Translations under genes and position numbers: made by a program
Part shown: piece after piece, positions 1 to 28,962 of the stretch
Numbering within the stretch: position 1 is the first letter of the stretch
Layout of the letters: each line of letters begins with the position of its first letter
DNA from: a virus
Lineage: Duplodnaviria > Heunggongvirae > Uroviricota > Caudoviricetes
IMG/VR virus record: IMGVR_UViG_2684623059_000004
Direction: 5' to 3' (one strand)
DNA: 37,308 nt
The notes under the pieces: generated by a model
What the model was told of the DNA's origin: nothing
The model's database searches: none
What the model saw: only the letters and a program-made list of their open reading frames with translations

Positions 1-258
1 ATGCAAACCGTTATTTTTGGGCGCCCGGGATGTCCTTACTGCGTGCGAGCGAAAGATCTGGCAGAGCAGTTGAGCAACGAACGTGATGATTTTCAGTATC
101 AGTATGTTGATATTCGTGCTGAAGGGATCACTAAAGAAGATTTGCAGCAGAAAGCCGGGAAGCCTGTAGAAACCGTGCCGCAGATTTTTGTCGATCAGCA
201 ACACATTGGCGGCTATACCGATTTTGCCGCATGGGTGAAAGAGAATCTTGACGCCTGA
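1..258 (+). CDS. grxA: glutaredoxin 1
   Basis: 85-aa ORF starting at base 1; CPYC active-site motif (GRPGCPYCVRAK); host backbone gene. Confidence 0.9.
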   Translation: MQTVIFGRPGCPYCVRAKDLAEQLSNERDDFQYQYVDIRAEGITKEDLQQKAGKPVETVPQIFVDQQHIGGYTDFAAWVKENLDA

Positions 259-289: not shown

Positions 290-667
290 TTATTGATTTT
301 TTCTGTGATGTGGCTTGAACAGATTGCTGATAAATAAGAAGCACAACGCTCCCAGCGCACACCAGAAGACTGCACTTAATAACCACGCCAGCTCCTGCCA
401 AAATGAGCGGGTGGGAGAAAAAAACAGTCGCATAATTAACATCGAGCACGGTGCTGCCAGCATTGCGCCAAACAGCGGTTTAAGAACTTCTCTACGCTGT
501 GAAAAAAAGCTGGCAACCGCTCCAGGAAGAATGAAAAACAGCAGACCGATTTCAGGGTGCCCGGCAGCCCGAAAAGCGCCTTTCATATGCGTCGCCAGAA
601 AGAGGCACACCACAATGAAAAGGACAAAACAGCAGATTGCCCCCGCCCAACGTTGTTTATGTTTCAC
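290..667 (-). CDS. ybjM: inner membrane protein YbjM
   Basis: 125-aa hydrophobic ORF between grxA and ybjL, matching the known E. coli grxA-ybjM-ybjL neighbourhood. Confidence 0.65.
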   Translation of the reverse strand: MKHKQRWAGAICCFVLFIVVCLFLATHMKGAFRAAGHPEIGLLFFILPGAVASFFSQRREVLKPLFGAMLAAPCSMLIMRLFFSPTRSFWQELAWLLSAVFWCALGALCFLFISNLFKPHHRKNQ

Positions 668-935: not shown

Positions 936-2621
936 GTGAATATAAACGTCGCCGAATTGTTAAATGGGAATTACATTCTGTTATTATTTGTGGTCCTCGC
1001 GCTTGGGCTGTGTCTCGGGAAATTACGACTTGGCTCAATCCAACTGGGTAATTCCATTGGCGTTTTGGTCGTATCGCTGTTATTAGGCCAACAACATTTC
1101 AGCATTAACACCGACGCACTGAATCTTGGTTTTATGCTGTTTATTTTCTGCGTCGGGGTCGAAGCCGGACCCAACTTTTTTTCCATTTTTTTTCGCGATG
1201 GGAAAAATTATCTAATGTTAGCCCTGGTAATGGTCGGCAGTGCGCTGCTGATCGCCTTAGGGCTGGGTAAGCTGTTTGGCTGGGACATCGGCCTGACAGC
1301 CGGGATGTTAGCTGGCTCCATGACTTCAACACCAGTTCTGGTTGGTGCCGGCGATACGTTACGCCATTCTGGTATGGAAAGCAGGCAGCTCTCTCTGGCA
1401 CTGGATAATCTTAGCCTCGGGTATGCGTTAACCTATTTAATTGGTCTGGTCAGTCTGATTGTCGGCGCGCGTTATTTACCGAAGTTGCAGCATCAGGACT
1501 TGCAGACCAGTGCTCAACAGATCGCCCGTGAACGAGGTCTGGACACCGACGCCAGCCGTAAAGTCTATTTACCTGTCATCCGCGCCTACCGCGTCGGCCC
1601 GGAACTGGTTGCATGGACCGACGGCAAAAATCTGCGAGAACTGGGCATCTATCGGCAAACGGGTTGCTATATCGAGCGTATCCGCCGTAATGGGATTCTG
1701 GCGAACCCGGATGGCGATGCCGTGCTGCAAATGGGTGATGAAATTGCGTTGGTCGGTTACCCTGACGCCCACGCCCGACTCGATCCCAGCTTCCGTAACG
1801 GTAAAGAAGTTTTTGATCGTGACCTTCTCGATATGCGTATCGTCACTGAAGAGGTAGTAGTTAAAAACCATAACGCCGTTGGTAAACGTCTGGCGCAATT
1901 GAAATTGACCGATCACGGTTGCTTCCTTAACCGCGTCATCCGCAGCCAGATAGAGATGCCAATCGATGACAACGTGGTACTTAATAAAGGTGACGTGTTG
2001 CAAGTCAGTGGTGATGCCCGTCGCGTGAAAACCATCGCCGATCGCATTGGCTTTATCTCAATTCACAGCCAGGTTACCGATTTGCTGGCATTCTGCGCAT
2101 TCTTTGTCATTGGTCTGATGATTGGGATGATCACTTTCCAGTTCAGTACATTTAGCTTTGGCATGGGTAATGCTGCCGGATTGTTATTTGCCGGTATTAT
2201 GCTGGGCTTTATGCGCGCCAACCATCCTACCTTCGGCTATATTCCGCAGGGTGCCTTAAGCATGGTGAAAGAGTTCGGTTTGATGGTGTTTATGGCAGGC
2301 GTTGGTTTAAGCGCCGGTAGCGGCATCAATAACGGCCTTGGTGCAATTGGCGGTCAAATGCTAATTGCCGGATTGATTGTCAGTCTGGTGCCAGTGGTTA
2401 TCTGCTTCCTGTTCGGTGCTTACGTACTGCGTATGAACCGCGCGCTGTTATTCGGCGCAATGATGGGAGCACGTACTTGCGCTCCGGCAATGGAGATTAT
2501 CAGCGATACTGCGCGCAGTAATATCCCGGCGCTGGGCTATGCAGGTACCTATGCAATAGCTAACGTGCTACTGACGCTGGCGGGGACAATCATTGTAATG
2601 GTGTGGCCAGGACTCGGATAA
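936..2621 (+). CDS. ybjL: putative AAE-family transporter YbjL
   Basis: 561-aa ORF with hydrophobic N- and C-terminal halves separated by a soluble central region; position next to ybjM. Confidence 0.8.
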
Positions 2622-2733
2622 ACCTGAAGTTGCCCTGAGAATGAAATTTTTTTGCACAAGCGCAGAACTTTTCTTCGGGGCATCAGTCTTAATTAGTGCC
2701 ACTGCTTTTCTTTGATGTCCCCATTTTGTGGAG

Positions 2734-2777
2734 CCCATCAACCCCGCCATTTAGGTTCAAGGTTGATGGGTTTTTTG
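2734..2777 (+). terminator. rho-independent terminator-like hairpin downstream of ybjL, near the prophage junction
   Basis: perfect 10-bp stem cccatcaacc (2734-2743) / ggttgatggg (2761-2770) followed by tttttt. Confidence 0.5.
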
Positions 2778-2856
2778 TTGCCTGATTTTTATGCCGTTTA
2801 AAATCATGATGTTAGAAGCATTGCTTTTTAATGATGGCGACAAAATGGCGGCAGCG

Positions 2857-3075
2857 TCAAAGAGAGAGCGCCACCTGTCCTGATTTCATTGGATGCGGCT
2901 GAACCGGATTTGACTCTTTTGGCGTTGCAATCGAACGAACAAAAGTTTCATGGGTAACAAAAGTGTGGCTGCAGTTAATGTTCTGGCACTGGTTGTAACG
3001 CTCTTTGGTCAATGAAGATACCTGAAAACTGCTGCGAGTATGGGCAGCACTTCCACACAGTGGGCAAATCATCAT
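2857..3075 (-). CDS. ogr: Ogr/Delta-type zinc-finger late-gene activator
   Basis: CPLC...CQNINC zinc-finger pattern; 72 aa from the internal Met (MMICPLCG), which matches P2 Ogr length; the first ATG at 3108 is probably not the start. Confidence 0.75.
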   Translation of the reverse strand: MMICPLCGSAAHTRSSFQVSSLTKERYNQCQNINCSHTFVTHETFVRSIATPKESNPVQPHPMKSGQVALSL

Positions 3076-3165: not shown

Positions 3166-4266
3166 TCACTCCATTTCGAAATCATCAATCCTCACTTCAA
3201 GCTCCAGACTGGTCGTAAAACCGTTATCCGGGCTGACAGTATGCGTCAGGGTGGTAATAGTCCATTCCGCATCATCTATCGGCTGTTTAAAGCCACTGAC
3301 TTTCACTGGCATTTCCGTGTAGAGATCTGCCCGCCCTTCTGCCAGTTGTAACGAGAATGACGCAACGCCGCGTTGCAGGCGTTCCCACTGCATTTTCGCC
3401 GCTCGTTCGGCGTTGCTCCGGTTGGCATAAGTGCGATTAAGTACCAGCACGTTTTCATCCGTACCCACCAGGTAATCGCCCTGCTTCGCTTCTGGCTCTT
3501 TCTTCTGCTTCTTAGTTCTGCGCTTACGCTTCACCGTGGTGCTTTCTTTCTTCGCGGGTTCGCGGGTATGCAACCAACTGGCAATTACGCCCGTATAGGC
3601 TCCGCGATCTGCCAGGGTAAAGCGGTGACTGTCGCCGTCCTTGCGTGTGATAGTGATCACCGGCAGAGGTCTACCGCTGGCGCTTTTGCCCTGTCCCTGC
3701 CGGATGAATAACAGATTGCCATTTTTCACCGACGCAATAGCACCGTACTGGCGCGCCAGCCGCATCAGAAAACTGCCGTCACTCTCATTGGTCTGGTCTA
3801 TATGTTCCACGGGCTTATCCGACAGGTCTTTACCCAGTGCCACCTTCAGCTTGTGCCGCGCGGCTATTTCCTTCACCACTTCCCCGACGGTGGTCTTGTG
3901 CCACGACTTTTCACGACGGGTATTCAGCGTTTCCCGAAAATCAGCACTTCGCGCCCGGATAGTCAGGCGGTCCGGTGCGCCAGTGTGTTCAATCTCGTCC
4001 ACCGTGAATGCCCCTTTAGGGAAAAGCGGCTGCCCCTTCCAGCCCAGCGCCAGCGTAATGACCGCACCACGGCGCGGCAGCACGATTTTTCCGTCAGCGT
4101 CGTCCAGCTCCAGATCAAGCTGGTCTGCCTCAAAGCCCCGATTGTCCGTCAGCGTCAGACTCATCAGGCGGTTATCCAGCACAGTGGTGATATCCCTGCC
4201 CTCAATACTGATGCTGAATGCCGGAGTTTTGTTGCCTTTGTTAAGCAGCTCAGAGCTGAAATTCAC
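3166..4266 (-). CDS. D: tail protein D
   Basis: 366-aa ORF in the P2 gpD position, ATGA-coupled to U; sequence resembles P2 D from memory. Confidence 0.8.
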   Translation of the reverse strand: MNFSSELLNKGNKTPAFSISIEGRDITTVLDNRLMSLTLTDNRGFEADQLDLELDDADGKIVLPRRGAVITLALGWKGQPLFPKGAFTVDEIEHTGAPDRLTIRARSADFRETLNTRREKSWHKTTVGEVVKEIAARHKLKVALGKDLSDKPVEHIDQTNESDGSFLMRLARQYGAIASVKNGNLLFIRQGQGKSASGRPLPVITITRKDGDSHRFTLADRGAYTGVIASWLHTREPAKKESTTVKRKRRTKKQKKEPEAKQGDYLVGTDENVLVLNRTYANRSNAERAAKMQWERLQRGVASFSLQLAEGRADLYTEMPVKVSGFKQPIDDAEWTITTLTHTVSPDNGFTTSLELEVRIDDFEME

Positions 4267-8305: not shown

Positions 8306-8821
8306 TCAGAGGCCGAGGGCGTTGCGGTGCGCTTCCATCAAGTCCACACCGTCCACAATTTCCACCATGTTGATAAGGTCCACTTCATAGAGCACCTCAC
8401 CATTGATAGTCAGCTTCGCGTAGCTGTTGGTACTGGTCACTTTGGTGGTGTTGCTTTCGCCCGTCTTCCACTCGCCGGAATCCACTTCTTTGTGACGTCC
8501 ACGCACCACAAGCTCCACGGCCTGCACTTCCCCGGTATCATCACGCTGGATAGAGCCGGTAAAGCGCAACTGGATGCCATCCACCGTGGCTTTGCCCATC
8601 TGTTTAAACAGCAGCAGTTCAGTACCACCAATGGAAAATTCTGTGTCCAGCGCACTGTCATCAAGCCCCAGATCCACATCCACTGCACCCGGCATTCCGC
8701 CGCCGCGATACTTCTCATATTTGCGGGTGAATTTCGGCAGCGTCAGCGACTCAACGATCCCCTGCCAGTTATTCCCGTCGTTAAACAGGTTCAGGTGTTT
8801 TAATTTACGTGGTAAAGCCAT
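8306..8821 (-). CDS. FII: tail tube protein
   Basis: 171-aa ORF in the P2 FII position and of P2 FII size. Confidence 0.85.
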   Translation of the reverse strand: MALPRKLKHLNLFNDGNNWQGIVESLTLPKFTRKYEKYRGGGMPGAVDVDLGLDDSALDTEFSIGGTELLLFKQMGKATVDGIQLRFTGSIQRDDTGEVQAVELVVRGRHKEVDSGEWKTGESNTTKVTSTNSYAKLTINGEVLYEVDLINMVEIVDGVDLMEAHRNALGL

Positions 8822-8830
8822 GTTGTCCCC

Positions 8831-10003
8831 TTACGCGCTGACCTGGCTGGCGAAATTCACCAGGTACTGATCGGTGATGCGCTGACGCAGCATCAGGTTT
8901 TCAAGTGGTGGCACTGGCGTGTAGTCGTAATCGATGGTGAGTTTTCCGGCTTTCAGAGTGTCTTTGTCGTTCACCGACTCATCCAGCCAGCAATCGCCAC
9001 CAATGAGATAGCCCTGACTGACCAGGCTGCGCATTTTGGCGCGGATACCTTCGATAATGTCCCGGGCCAGCGACGGGTTAAGCGGTTTATCCACCGCCCA
9101 CATGTGTGCTTCTGCCATCGTGTCCATCAGCACCTGCGCCGTGCGGGTGTAGTTTTCGAAGGCAAAGAGCGGGTCATCACTCAGGCAGCGGGAACCCCAG
9201 AAGCGGAAACCGTCTTTGCGGATAAGGGTGGTGACGTCGTTCTGGTTCAGCAGTCCAGCATCGGTTGCCGTGTCCTGCAGATCCCAGAACACATCAGCAG
9301 AAATTCCGGTGACACCGTTAACGCCCACATTGGACAGGCTTTTGTGCCATCCGATCTGCTCGTCAATTTTTGCGCGCAGACCAAGCGCACGGGCGGTGGC
9401 ATATGCCGTTGCTTCGGCATTCAGCACCGTGTCCCAGCCAGTAAAGTCGGGCCAGATCAGCATTCCTTCGCGCTGGCTGAAGTTTTCACGGTAAGTGATC
9501 GCCTCCTGCACCGTCTTGCAGCCATACGCTGACAGGTAAGCAAACCCACGCAGGCTTTGCGCCACACTCAGCAACTCAGTAGCAACGGCTTTGTTATCGT
9601 GACCTGGCACGCCGAGAATGCGCGGTTTAACGCCGAGCTGTGACTGGGCAGATAACAGGGCTTTCATGCCTGTTTTTTTACCTTCAGCGGTCACTGCTCC
9701 GATGATATTGGTCGTGGTTTCTTCTTCCGTTTCACCCTGCGGCACACGCACAACAACGGTCACGGGTTTTGCCTGGTCAGCGATGGCGTCCAGCGAACGG
9801 GCCAGCGTACCGGACTCACCCGCTTTACCGCTGGCAGTCAGCACATCAGTGATCAGCACGGGTTTATTAAGAGGAAACATTTTTGCATCGGCATCATCGC
9901 CCGTGCAGACCATACCCACGATGGCGGTGCTCACCGTGGTAATGGATCGGGTGCCTTCGTTGACTTCAACAACGCGCACTCCGTGGTGGTAATCCTGAGC
10001 CAT
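8831..10003 (-). CDS. FI: contractile tail sheath protein
   Basis: 390-aa ORF in the P2 FI position; AGGAGG Shine-Dalgarno upstream. Confidence 0.85.
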
Positions 10004-23147: not shown

Positions 23148-24914
23148 ATGAACACCACACTGACACCCGCAGATCTCGATCCCCGTCGGCAGGCCATGCT
23201 GCTGTACTTTCAGGGATACCGCGTAGCCCGCATTGCTGAAATGCTGGGCGAGAAAGTTGCAACCGTTCACAGCTGGAAAAAACGCGACAAGTGGGGTGAC
23301 TATGGGCCGCTGGATCAGATGCAGCTCACCACCGCCGCACGCTACTGCCAGCTCATCATGAAGGAGCACAAAGAAGGGAAAGATTTCAAAGAGATTGACC
23401 TGCTGGCGCGCCAGTCGGAGCGCCACGCGCGGATCGGCAAGTTTAACAATGGCGGCAACGAAGCCGACTTAAACCCTAACGTCGCCAACCGCAACAAAGG
23501 CCCGCGCCGTCAGCCGGAAAAGAATGTTTTCACCGATGAGCAGATTGAGAAGCTGGAAGAAATCTTCCATTCCTCCATGTTCAACTACCAGCGCCACTGG
23601 TGGGAAGCCGGAAAAACCAACCGCATCCGCAACCTGCTGAAGTCTCGCCAGATCGGCGCGACCTTCTATTTTGCCCGTGAAGCCCTGATTGACGCCCTGC
23701 TTACCGGACGTAACCAGATTTTCCTTTCTGCCAGTAAGGCTCAGGCCCACGTCTTTAAACAATACATCATCGACTTCGCCAAAGAAGTCGAGGTGGAGCT
23801 AAAAGGCGATCCGATGGTGCTTCCTAACGGAGCCACGCTTTACTTCCTCGGCACCAATGCCCGCACGGCCCAGAGTTATCACGGCAACCTGTATCTGGAT
23901 GAATATTTCTGGATACCGAAATTCCAGGAGCTGCGCAAAGTGGCTTCCGGGATGGCTATTCACAAGAAATGGCGACAAACCTATTTTTCCACGCCATCCA
24001 GCCTGACCCACAGTGCTTATCCGTTCTGGTCCGGTGCGCTGTTCAACCGTGGACGCAACAAAGCTGACAAGGTGGACATCGACCTGTCCCACAGCAATCT
24101 GGCCCCCGGCCTGCTGTGCGCAGACGGGCAATACCGCCAGATAGTCACCGTGGAAGATGCGGTGCGCGGCGGCTGTAACCTGTTCGACCTCGACCAGCTG
24201 CGCATGGAGTACAGCCCGGACGAATACCAGAACCTGCTGATGTGCGAGTTCGTGGACGATCTCGCGTCCGTGTTCCCGCTCAGCGAACTGCAGGCGTGCA
24301 TGGTGGACAGCTGGGAAGTCTGGACCGACTTTCATGCACTGGCCCTGCGCCCGTTTGGCTGGCGCGAAGTGTGGATCGGTTATGACCCGGCAAAAGGTAC
24401 GCAGAACGGCGACAGTGCCGGATGCGTGGTGGTGGCTCCGCCAGCCGTGCCGGGTGGTAAGTTCCGCATTCTTGAGCGTCACCAGTGGCGCGGGATGGAC
24501 TTCCGCGCCCAGGCTGACGCCATCAAAAAACTGACCGAACAGTATAACGTGACCTATATCGGTATCGACTCGACCGGCGTCGGTCACGGGGTTTACGAGA
24601 ACGTGAAAGCGTTTTTTCCTGCCGTCAGGGAGTTTGTCTATAACCCCAACGTTAAAAACGCCCTGGTACTCAAGGCCTACGACATTATCAGCCACCGCCG
24701 TCTGGAGTTTGACGCCGGGCACACCGACATTGCGCAGTCATTTATGGCAATCCGTCGCGCTACCACTGCCAGTGGCAACCGCCCGACCTATGAAGCCAGC
24801 CGCAGCGAAGAAGCCAGCCATGCCGATCTGGCCTGGGCAACAATGCACGCACTGTTTAACGAACCGCTGCAGGGCGAGTCCGCCAATACCAGCAATATTG
24901 TGGAGATTTTTTGA
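23148..24914 (+). CDS. P: terminase large (ATPase) subunit
   Basis: 588-aa ORF, P2 P size; divergent from O. Confidence 0.85.
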   Translation: MNTTLTPADLDPRRQAMLLYFQGYRVARIAEMLGEKVATVHSWKKRDKWGDYGPLDQMQLTTAARYCQLIMKEHKEGKDFKEIDLLARQSERHARIGKFNNGGNEADLNPNVANRNKGPRRQPEKNVFTDEQIEKLEEIFHSSMFNYQRHWWEAGKTNRIRNLLKSRQIGATFYFAREALIDALLTGRNQIFLSASKAQAHVFKQYIIDFAKEVEVELKGDPMVLPNGATLYFLGTNARTAQSYHGNLYLDEYFWIPKFQELRKVASGMAIHKKWRQTYFSTPSSLTHSAYPFWSGALFNRGRNKADKVDIDLSHSNLAPGLLCADGQYRQIVTVEDAVRGGCNLFDLDQLRMEYSPDEYQNLLMCEFVDDLASVFPLSELQACMVDSWEVWTDFHALALRPFGWREVWIGYDPAKGTQNGDSAGCVVVAPPAVPGGKFRILERHQWRGMDFRAQADAIKKLTEQYNVTYIGIDSTGVGHGVYENVKAFFPAVREFVYNPNVKNALVLKAYDIISHRRLEFDAGHTDIAQSFMAIRRATTASGNRPTYEASRSEEASHADLAWATMHALFNEPLQGESANTSNIVEIF

Positions 24915-25939
24915 TGGGAAAGAGTAAGAAGAACCGCGCTGCGTCGACGAAACAGATCCAGCATAAAAGCCAGACTTCAGCCGAAGCATTCAGCTTCGGT
25001 GATCCCGTTCCTGTTCTGGACCGCCGCGAACTGCTGGACTATGTGGAATGCGTACAGATGGATCGTTGGTACGAGCCGCCTGTGAGTTTCGACGGACTGG
25101 CGCGAACCTTCCGCGCCGCCGTGCATCACAGCTCACCGATTGCAGTGAAGTGCAACATTCTGACCAGCACCTACATCCCTCACCCGCTGCTCAGCCAGCA
25201 GGCTTTTTCGCGTTTTGTACAGGACTATCTGGTTTTTGGTAACGCCTACCTGGAGAAACGCACGAACCGCTTCGGTGAAGTTATCGCCCTTGAGCCTGCA
25301 CTGGCAAAATACACCCGACGCGGGTTAGACCTTGATACCTACTGGTTTGTGCAATACGGCATGACTACGCAGCCGTATCAGTTCACGAAAGGCAACATTT
25401 TTCATCTGATGGAACCGGACATCAACCAGGAGATCTACGGCCTGCCCGGTTATCTTTCTGCCATTCCGTCAGCTCTGCTCAACGAGTCCGCCACGCTGTT
25501 CCGCCGCAAGTATTACATTAACGGCAGTCATGCAGGCTTCATCATGTACATGACCGATGCAGCGCAGAACCAGGAGGATGTGAACAACCTCCGCAATGCG
25601 ATGAAAAGCGCCAAAGGTCCTGGTAACTTCCGTAACCTGTTTATGTACTCGCCTAACGGTAAAAAGGACGGGCTTCAGATTATCCCGTTGTCAGAAGTGG
25701 CGGCGAAGGATGAGTTTCTGAATATCAAAAATGTCAGCCGCGATGACATGATGGCAGCGCACCGTGTGCCACCGCAAATGATGGGGATTATGCCAAATAA
25801 TGTCGGGGGGTTTGGGGATGTGGAAAAAGCGAGTTTAGTGTTTGTGAGGAACGAATTAATACCCTTACAGAAAAGGATGCAGGAATTAAATAAATGGCTT
25901 GAAGATAATATATTACAATTCAAACCATATAAATTTTAA
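24911..25939 (+). CDS. Q: portal protein
   Basis: 342-aa ORF, P2 Q size; ATGA-coupled to P. Confidence 0.85.
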   Translation: MMGKSKKNRAASTKQIQHKSQTSAEAFSFGDPVPVLDRRELLDYVECVQMDRWYEPPVSFDGLARTFRAAVHHSSPIAVKCNILTSTYIPHPLLSQQAFSRFVQDYLVFGNAYLEKRTNRFGEVIALEPALAKYTRRGLDLDTYWFVQYGMTTQPYQFTKGNIFHLMEPDINQEIYGLPGYLSAIPSALLNESATLFRRKYYINGSHAGFIMYMTDAAQNQEDVNNLRNAMKSAKGPGNFRNLFMYSPNGKKDGLQIIPLSEVAAKDEFLNIKNVSRDDMMAAHRVPPQMMGIMPNNVGGFGDVEKASLVFVRNELIPLQKRMQELNKWLEDNILQFKPYKF

Positions 25940-25980: not shown

Positions 25981-27927
<1,947 letters not shown>

Positions 27928-27979
27928 TCAACTTTCTGTTTTCCAGAAGTATTTTGCCTATTTTACGTGATAGCGCGCG

Positions 27980-27998
27980 CTCGTATCCCCGCCACGCC
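27980..27998 (-). other. cos-like cohesive-end site
   Basis: minus strand reads GGCGTGGCGGGGATACGAG followed by CGCGCGCT; first 13 nt and the GCGCGCT run match the P2/186 cos ends as I recall them. Confidence 0.5.
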
Positions 27999-28040
27999 TG
28001 CCCGCTTTATGTAGTGGTTTTCATGCACCTGCATGATCTA

Positions 28041-28068
28041 CGCAAAAGCCCGCCAGAACTGGCGGGCC
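28041..28068 (-). terminator. rho-independent terminator downstream of the lipoprotein gene
   Basis: 9-bp GC stem gcccgccag / ctggcgggc with 2-nt loop, followed on the minus strand by UUUU. Confidence 0.65.
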
Positions 28069-28171
28069 TTAACACAAAAGATCCTCAAACGATCATGCGA
28101 TCTCATGCAGCATAGACATGCGCGTTTATGCAGAATGTGCAAAATCGTAACATACTCAGTAAGCGTGAAAC

Positions 28172-28849
28172 CTAGAACGTGACAGCCTTGTCAAAGCCAG
28201 AAATAATTGTATAAGAAATAGACGAGTTATCAGCCTTGTTCACTTTGAACTTGGCACCTTTGTAAGCGATAACATCACTTCCCTTAGAATCTACAGAAAA
28301 ATCTGTTGTAAATGCTGCACGAGCCATATCGTTTGCAAATTCACGATAGGTGAACTTCATTACACCGCCTGCATTTCCATTGTATTCGATAGTCTTAACC
28401 AATGAATTACTCACTCGACACAGCCCATCAGGAACACGTTTGATAGAAATTTCTGATGCAGTATAAGAAGTGCCATTTGGCGGTGATATCTCATTTTTTG
28501 CAGCATCGTAACTAACATAATCAACATAGTTACCGATTTGCCCATAGAGATTTTTTAACGCAACAGCTTGAGGATTATGATAATTGCGGTAAATTCCATT
28601 CCCCTCACTGCAATATGTACCAGCAGCGATAGAAGACAATGCACCATTAGCCGCACCAAGTTCTAGTACGTCCGTTTTAAATCCAGTAGCAGATGTGATA
28701 ATGGGATCGCCCATGTAGGCGGTAGCACTTTGCCCAATAGCTGGCTTCACCACTTCAATAGCAGTGATATTTCGGTTAGAAGCATGTGGCACGCAACCAG
28801 TTAGGATTACAGCAAGAGATATTGGTAACGCTACATTATTAATTTTCAT
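28172..28849 (-). CDS. prophage lipoprotein at the P2 old/tin position
   Basis: signal peptide MKINNVALPISLAVILTGC with lipobox; start taken at Met19 of the longest ORF; own terminator. Confidence 0.7.
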   Translation of the reverse strand: MKINNVALPISLAVILTGCVPHASNRNITAIEVVKPAIGQSATAYMGDPIITSATGFKTDVLELGAANGALSSIAAGTYCSEGNGIYRNYHNPQAVALKNLYGQIGNYVDYVSYDAAKNEISPPNGTSYTASEISIKRVPDGLCRVSNSLVKTIEYNGNAGGVMKFTYREFANDMARAAFTTDFSVDSKGSDVIAYKGAKFKVNKADNSSISYTIISGFDKAVTF

Positions 28850-28962
28850 TTTTAGCCTATTATTCTTTTCTTGACAAAAAACAAGGCGATATCTGATTGA
28901 CATCGCCTCTCACTCATATGTAACCCTTTTTGATTAGTAAAAACAAGCGTCTATTGACAAAA

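Follow-up and report, generated by a model that had tools for sequence, protein, structure and literature searches.

The ogr-side junction of a retron Ec67-bearing P2/186-group prophage at the 3′ end of the small RNA gene rybB in Escherichia albertii

Introduction

The attachment site considered here has been on record since 1990 and has been identified explicitly as rybB since 2014. Retron Ec67 was described on a 34-kb element that is bounded by 26-bp direct repeats and contains a Dam gene (Hsu et al. 1990, as quoted in a passage of PMC7826664). In a passage of PMC6868368 that quotes Dodd and Egan (1996), the retron lies in a 186-related prophage, with cos on one side and a packaging gene on the other. 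A prophage of CFT073, at 908870-942351, is listed at the integration site of PhiECO1 in the available portion of Nilsson and Haggard-Ljungquist (2011, PMC3448106). The text of the paper contains neither ybjK nor ybjL, and that portion makes no mention of rybB. According to the same portion, the attB of coliphage 186 is in a tRNA-Ile gene, the attB sites of Fels-2 and SopE-phi are in ssrA, and the 186-group arm-site consensus of P2-like integrases is tgccGCCActt.

Other reports name rybB directly. The Kpn38RybB island was located ‘precisely within the gene for RybB’ (PMC4048246), and E. coli defence hotspot #29 was found to hold only Felsduovirus prophages, integrated within rybB (Hochhauser et al. 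2023, PMC10121019). Hudson et al. are also among the publications documenting the site. In the annotation of Klebsiella phage 4LV2017, a rybB copy ends in a 19-bp attR, ATGGGTTTTTTGTTGCCTG.

We analysed a 37,308-nt stretch of DNA from a viral sequence record, hereafter the window. An earlier note, made from the sequence alone, had recognized a prophage junction downstream of ybjL. The results presented below make the following reading very probable: a temperate P2/186-group phage (Peduoviridae) of ∼34.6 kb, carrying retron Ec67, is integrated at the 3′ end of rybB in E. albertii, and 2622-2860 is its ogr-side junction. This finding is correct but already known: it is a textbook case of integration at the 3′ end of a structured RNA gene.

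Results

The gene order at the left end of the window was established from ORFs, Pfam matches and RefSeq homologues. As the earlier note had read it, grxA, ybjM and ybjL are followed by ogr and the tail genes (Table 1). ybjL is the last host protein gene ahead of the junction, and gpD is followed by the tape-measure gene, tail genes and the remainder of a P2/186-type late region. The host flank is ∼90.3% identical to E. coli at the DNA level. In the earlier note, ogr was also said to follow ybjL directly. This part of the description does not hold, as the sRNA gene rybB intervenes: the two protein genes are separated by a non-coding stretch of 235 bp, in which the prophage abuts the 3′ end of a complete rybB gene. 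The same ybjL-ogr-D junction was present in 1115 of the 5426 complete E. coli genomes searched, such that ∼20% carry a prophage at this position.

Table 1. Coordinates of host, attachment-site and prophage features in the window.
Feature	Position	Strand	Basis
grxA	1-258	+	ORF list; name from RefSeq annotation of homologous loci
ybjM	290-667	-	ORF list; name from RefSeq annotation of homologous loci
ybjL (aspartate:alanine antiporter family)	936-2621	+	ORF; RefSeq homologues; exact protein in E. albertii genomes
Putative sigma-E-type rybB promoter	2665-2691	+	-35 GAACTT 2665-2670, 16-nt spacer, -10 TCTTA 2687-2691
rybB sRNA gene, complete	2698-2779	+	Rfam RF00110; identity to prophage-free conspecific loci (L037-L044)
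RybB intrinsic terminator	2732-2776	+	Stem 2732-2743 with 2761-2772; T6 2771-2776
att identity block, 20 bp, ATGGGTTTTTTGTTGCCTGA	2766-2785		Common to E. albertii attB and phage attP
ogr-proximal attP arm (phage DNA)	2786-2856		Contiguous with int-proximal arm in KP12 and L020; absent in empty sites
Two tandem 11-bp putative arm-type Int sites, 186 type (TGATGGCGACA, AAATGGCGGCA)	2832-2853	+	Consensus match
ogr (late-gene activator), first prophage gene	2857-3075	-	Pfam Ogr_Delta, 78 bits; RefSeq homologues
gpD	3166-4266	-	Pfam Phage_GPD
Retron Ec67 (Eco2) RT-Toprim gene	25981-27741, in ORF 25981-27870	-	PDB 9i2f; PADLOC
int, tyrosine integrase, 350 aa	36256-37308	+	Int_N, 111.6 bits; Phage_integrase, 78.4 bits
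Two tandem putative arm-type Int sites (AAGTGGCGACA, AAGTGGCGGCA)	37266-37287	+	Consensus match; within int codons for GDKVAAA

An Rfam scan of the whole window returned a single match, RF00110 (RybB), at 2701-2779 (+). The match covers the full model (1-79/79) with a score of 106.5 bits, the gathering score being 40, and an E-value of 3.7e-21. In empty E. coli and E. albertii loci, ybjL is followed by rybB and then by either rcdA (ybjK) or a TetR-family gene. rybB is on the same strand as ybjL and, in the window, the prophage parts it from rcdA.

RybB is an Hfq-dependent, sigma-E-dependent sRNA that regulates omp mRNAs; a transcript of ∼80 nt, dependent on sigma-E, is published for E. coli and Salmonella. 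In the window, the TCTTA element is followed by 6 nt and then by a G at 2698, the rybB +1 as read from the sequence. Positions 2665-2698 would fit the sigma-E consensus and the known 5′ end of RybB.

The perfect 10-bp-stem hairpin with a T tract that the earlier note reported after ybjL was confirmed by sequence and by folding. Its 5′ arm, CCCATCAACC (2734-2743), pairs over all 10 bp with the 3′ arm, GGTTGATGGG (2761-2770), and the Rfam structure lengthens the stem to 12 bp through G2733-U2771 and A2732-U2772. Folding of 2728-2782 yielded −23.3 kcal/mol (z = −3.68), and 0 of 200 shuffled sequences were equally stable. The stability of the hairpin exceeds chance. A simple terminator scan flagged neither this hairpin nor the phage hairpin described below; the RybB terminator was missed because its 17-nt loop exceeds the scanner limit of 8.

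The hairpin could instead be a plain terminator of ybjL, or a generic intergenic palindrome, in which case the phage would target an intergenic site without an RNA gene. ybjL is indeed on the strand of the hairpin, the terminator scan found no other terminator-like site between the ybjL stop at 2621 and the hairpin, and ybjL transcripts may also end there. However, the 79 nt up to the hairpin are a full-length RybB match that scores far above the gathering score, what appears to be a sigma-E-type promoter precedes this match at the right spacing, and rybB is explicitly named as the target in the literature (PMC10121019, PMC4048246). We consider the intergenic reading very unlikely. The hairpin is the intrinsic terminator of RybB, and that it belongs to an sRNA gene had escaped the earlier note. 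The phage thus targets an RNA gene at its 3′ end, just as tRNA and tmRNA genes are targeted. Separately, the A at 2754 in the terminator loop, where E. coli has C, was considered as a phage-derived mark and rejected, as A occurs in all eight prophage-free E. albertii loci.

The junction was delimited using prophage-free loci and unrecombined attP sequences. An exact look-up of the window's YbjL protein yielded eight empty sites (L037-L044), all of them prophage-free; CP099887 and CP126912, two of their accessions, have been cited as genomes of Escherichia albertii. Positions 1-2785 of the window are 99.6-100% identical to these loci, one of which (L042) has no mismatches. On the right, the match of all eight to the window ends at exactly 2785. 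Beyond ...GTTGCCTGA, the empty sites continue with AATTTGTCTCC toward an rcdA homologue, and the window continues with TTTTTATGCC. The earlier note had placed the integration site within ∼240 bp after ybjL and had proposed a comparison with prophage-free loci; the comparison puts the junction in that interval at the same nucleotide in 8/8 loci.

The left limit was provided by Klebsiella phage KP12, which has an unrecombined attP with the order int, ...CCCGTTTACATAA-ATGGGTTTTTTGTT-GTCTGAAATTTATGCCGTTTAAAATC..., ogr. The KP12 attP and all int-side junctions have CATAA before ATGGG, where rybB has GGTTG, and KP12 departs from the window left of 2766. Since the empty sites diverge after 2785 and the KP12 attP left of 2766, the identity block is 2766-2785. 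Within the block are 5 bp from the end of the terminator stem, the T run and a further 9 bases. If mismatches are allowed, the similarity reaches ∼27 bp (ATGGGTTTTTTGTTGCCTGAwwTTTrT). The annotated attR of 4LV2017 is identical to window positions 2766-2784.

The first 14 bp of the block (2766-2779, ATGGGTTTTTTGTT) are common to every host and junction examined. In E. coli empty sites (ybjL-rybB-rcdA), homology to the window stops at 2779 or 2792. In K-12-type hosts, identity stops after 2779, and the sequence to the right of the 14-mer is phage-type on the ybjL side and host-type on the rcdA side. We therefore infer that strand exchange occurs within the 14-mer. Both junctions of the E. coli lysogen L003 (NZ_CP063503.1) contain ATGGGTTTTTTGTT: the rcdA-side junction is ...CCCGTTTACATAA-ATGGGTTTTTTGTT-ATCTAAAAC and the ybjL-side junction is ...GGTTG-ATGGGTTTTTTGTT-GCCTGATTTTTATGCC.

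Two attB alleles occur in E. coli. The K-12 type, GTTATCTAAAACTTAT (L001, 3367-3393), matches attP over 14 bp. The UPEC129 type, GTTGCCTGAAATTTAT (L002, 3367-3393), matches attP variants over up to 27 bp and may be either ancestral or the footprint of a past integration and excision.

Through 2785, RybB is the same in the window as in non-lysogens. It is unchanged by integration because the identity block spans the end of the terminator stem and the T run. The earlier note had suggested that the hairpin is a host terminator regenerated through the att core, and this suggestion is borne out: the empty sites have the hairpin as well, and the att identity block contains both its T run and its 3′ half. 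Integration therefore reconstitutes the terminator.

We also weighed whether the true boundary is further right, within 2786-2856, such that the 70 bp ahead of ogr would be host DNA. The only point in favour of this placement is that 2786-2856 is non-coding. Against it, the eight conspecific empty sites part from the window at 2786, the same 70 bp are joined straight to the int-proximal arm in phage KP12 and contig L020, and 2786-2856 bears arm-type sites at the conserved +69/+80 positions. We give a boundary to the right of the identity block virtually no credence and take 2786-2856 to be phage DNA.

Intact attP sequences that join both arms were also present in the IMG/VR contigs L012, L020 and L024. 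The pattern used to search viral contigs, CCCGTTTACATAAATGGGTTTTTTGTTGYCTGA, was meant for attP and also matches int-side junctions in hosts whose attB reads GTTGCCTGA. The contigs were accordingly sorted by the arm motifs at +69/+80, by which only L006, L012, L020 and L024 are clear attP sequences; L018 is a probable attP in which the motifs are shifted.

The repeat units at 2832-2853 and 37266-37287 match the reverse complement of the 186-group consensus, tgccGCCActt. The earlier note had missed this 186-type arm repeat and its copy in int. In ∼45 related loci, a pair of arm motifs occurs at -114/-103 from the start of the core. The +69/+80 pair was confined to loci with phage DNA on the right, where it recurs in four or more ogr-side arms of otherwise unrelated sequence; no host flank or empty site examined contained it. 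The int-proximal motifs are coding, so their conservation could reflect constraint on the protein; the non-coding copies on the ogr side answer this objection. Overall, positional conservation in divergent non-coding arms is good indirect evidence that these motifs are functional.

The attP also contains a hairpin 3′ of int, CCCGTTTA-CA-TAAATGGG-T6, whose 3′ half and T run are the core. In L004, this structure folds with −9 kcal/mol (z = −2.9) and is weaker than the RybB hairpin. It may act as the int terminator. In relatives, two direct repeats of CTAACTTRTTGTTTT occur between the int stop and the core (e.g., L004 4630-4670), where an accessory factor, Apl or IHF, may bind. Between CI and CII, where Apl would be expected, is a 73-aa ORF (34944-35165, -) with no Pfam match. 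Inspection of the int-proximal arm by eye revealed no convincing match to the IHF consensus. In L003, a two-gene cassette encoding a Panacea-domain protein and a hypothetical protein is present between int and the core (8620-9870). Downstream of the cassette is a 43-nt duplicate of the int 3′ end. The duplicate carries the arm sites and the -114/-103 spacing to the core is therefore kept.

At the other end of the element, int ends at the window edge, as the earlier note stated: the TAA stop is the last three bases (37308). An identical Int protein was found in 15,860 blocks of the protein collection and is beside rcdA in many genomes. The int-side junction was studied in relatives, namely E. 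coli L004/L005, in which int is 99.8-99.9% identical in DNA, and L046-L054, which have an identical Int protein. In these relatives, 74 nt separate the int stop from a second copy of the core, which thus begins 75 nt past the stop and is followed by the rcdA flank. The direct repeat that the earlier note anticipated at the far end is thus present in the relatives (ATGGGTTTTTTGTT by rcdA), and the window's own copy is beyond its end. This copy is predicted at ∼37383-37402, which would make the element 34,617 bp. The predicted int-side junction is TAACCACCACTGACC...CCCGTTTACATAA-ATGGGTTTTTTGTTGCCTGA-AATTTGTCTCCAGTCCCGCG, continuing into an rcdA homologue.

The exact-Int look-up returned only hosts other than E. 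albertii, and no lysogen of this species showing the predicted int-side junction was found. The flanks returned were of the E. coli type, of a host type with a 187-aa TetR gene and, in one case, a secondary site. The predicted E. albertii junction pattern had no match in metagenome or viral contigs. In genome contigs, a 46-nt degenerate pattern for the ogr-side junction proved too stringent and had no match. The int-side junction, sought with a 24-nt pattern, was present in representative genomes of nine enterobacterial species, from Raoultella, Klebsiella, Enterobacter, Leclercia, Silvania, Scandinavium, a Citrobacter MAG and two Escherichia species.

The element encodes retron Ec67. The RT-Toprim protein shares 584/586 aa with PDB 9i2f, ‘Retron Ec67 protein’, and was assigned by PADLOC to RT-Toprim_I-C with 721.6 bits. 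The retron adjoins the portal gene (24911-25939), between this gene and the presumed cos region. The msr/msd would be expected upstream of RT at ∼27742-28100 (-), where Rfam gave no match at the gathering threshold. The regulatory genes are 186-like (CI, CII and Fil) and a Dam methylase is present.

Two further ORFs were noted. A 311-aa ORF at 16245-17180 (+), on the opposite strand within the tail/baseplate block, matched the PADLOC candidate defence family PDC-S15 with 108.8 bits. The equivalent position in L003 holds a DUF2971 gene, and the position is probably a slot for cargo (moron) genes. A 243-aa ORF at 28172-28903 (-), between the retron and the region of the DinI-like gene, has an apparent lipoprotein-like signal sequence (...ILTGC) and matched no PADLOC family.

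Decay probably does occur at this site. Elements of ∼6.7, 8 and 9.9 kb with the same two junction types are present in the IMG/VR contigs L025, L023 and L011, respectively, and the element in the window could likewise be an immobile remnant, its junction the fossil of an att site that no longer works. However, the window holds the full P2/186 set: ogr, D, tape measure, sheath and tube, baseplate, capsid, terminase, portal, replication gene A, dam, CII, CI and int. Moreover, Int is intact and identical to the protein of the 15,860 blocks mentioned above, the arm sites and core are intact, and the predicted length of 34,617 bp matches the size of viable relatives (33.4-34.8 kb in phage records). 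A decayed element is unlikely. As to the short elements themselves, the rybB-side junctions of L023 and L025 have the +69/+80 arm motifs and that of L011 does not; all three have the int-side junction. Such elements could be decayed prophages, or else small integrative elements that use the same att system.

Discussion

We propose that the phage integrates into the 3′ end of rybB by site-specific recombination catalyzed by its tyrosine integrase. The attP block, ATGGGTTTTTTGTT(GCCTGA), coincides in sequence with the descending half of the RybB terminator stem and its U tract. In this model, the core is the common 3′ half of two structures, each a hairpin with a T run: the RybB terminator and the phage hairpin. 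Int presumably binds the tandem 186-type arm sites that flank the core. The most likely place of strand exchange is within the 14 bp common to all hosts. Recombination would swap the partners of the two 5′ halves and leave neither hairpin changed. After integration, the promoter, seed region and 5′ half of the terminator of rybB are host DNA. The 3′ half is of host or phage origin; its sequence is identical in the two, and RybB is therefore unchanged. The phage hairpin would be rebuilt at the other junction, beside rcdA.

We identify the element as a copy, in E. albertii, of the classic 186-like prophage of retron Ec67. It resembles the published element in its RT, its Dam, its 186-type CI/CII/Fil and its size of ∼34 kb. 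The position of the retron beside the portal gene fits the cos/packaging-gene position given in the quoted passage. The imperfect direct repeat of ∼27 bp is similar in length to the quoted 26-bp repeats. The two differ in their hosts, E. coli versus E. albertii, and the perfect repeat here would be 20 bp.

The CFT073 prophage of the PhiECO1-type site is located between rcdA and ybjL, with int on the rcdA side and ogr on the ybjL side. The site and orientation are the same as in the window, and the Int is of the 186-type arm-site consensus in the available portion of PMC3448106. The K. pneumoniae elements Kpn38RybB and 4LV2017, taken as one group with E. coli hotspot #29, share integration at the rybB 3′ end, and the ogr-side arm is 97% identical to that of the window. 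This group differs from the window in host genus and cargo genes.

Coliphage 186, Fels-2 and SopE-phi share the integrase family and arm-site type, and in these phages, as here, the 3′ end of a structured RNA gene is replaced by an identical phage copy. The target differs, being an Hfq-dependent sRNA here and a tRNA or tmRNA in those phages. Just 14 nt of the gene (2766-2779) are shared here: the final 5 bp of the stem, the U tract and GTT. For tRNA targets, tens of nucleotides are typical.

For annotation, the value of these results lies in the prophage boundary, with the crossover within 2766-2785, in an element size of ∼34.6 kb, in an intact rybB and in the retron Ec67 identity. The 3′ end of the sRNA terminator, which is strongly conserved, forms the 14-bp core and illustrates why the host range of this phage lineage is broad.

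A further idea concerns transcription across the junction. Read-through of the sigma-E-driven rybB transcript past its terminator would cross the ogr-side att arm and continue antisense into ogr, such that envelope stress could modulate the occupancy of the arm by Int or the expression of ogr. The support for this idea is the geometry, namely the same strand, 78 nt from the RybB terminator to the 3′ end of ogr, and 80 nt from the T run to the ogr stop. We view such coupling as highly improbable. If it were true, the common 3′ half of the hairpins would represent regulatory coupling, beyond a convenient conserved target.

Secondary attachment sites are known for P2. In L045 (CP129108.1, ∼4100-4160), a prophage with a closely similar int region is located beside the ilvL leader. 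The int called in this genome is 44 nt longer than the 1053 bp of the query and was flagged as not translating to it. The junction reads ...CATAAATGG, then TTATTTTTTTAGCCGGAAATTCAT, with a loose likeness to the rybB core, and the position looks like a secondary attachment site.
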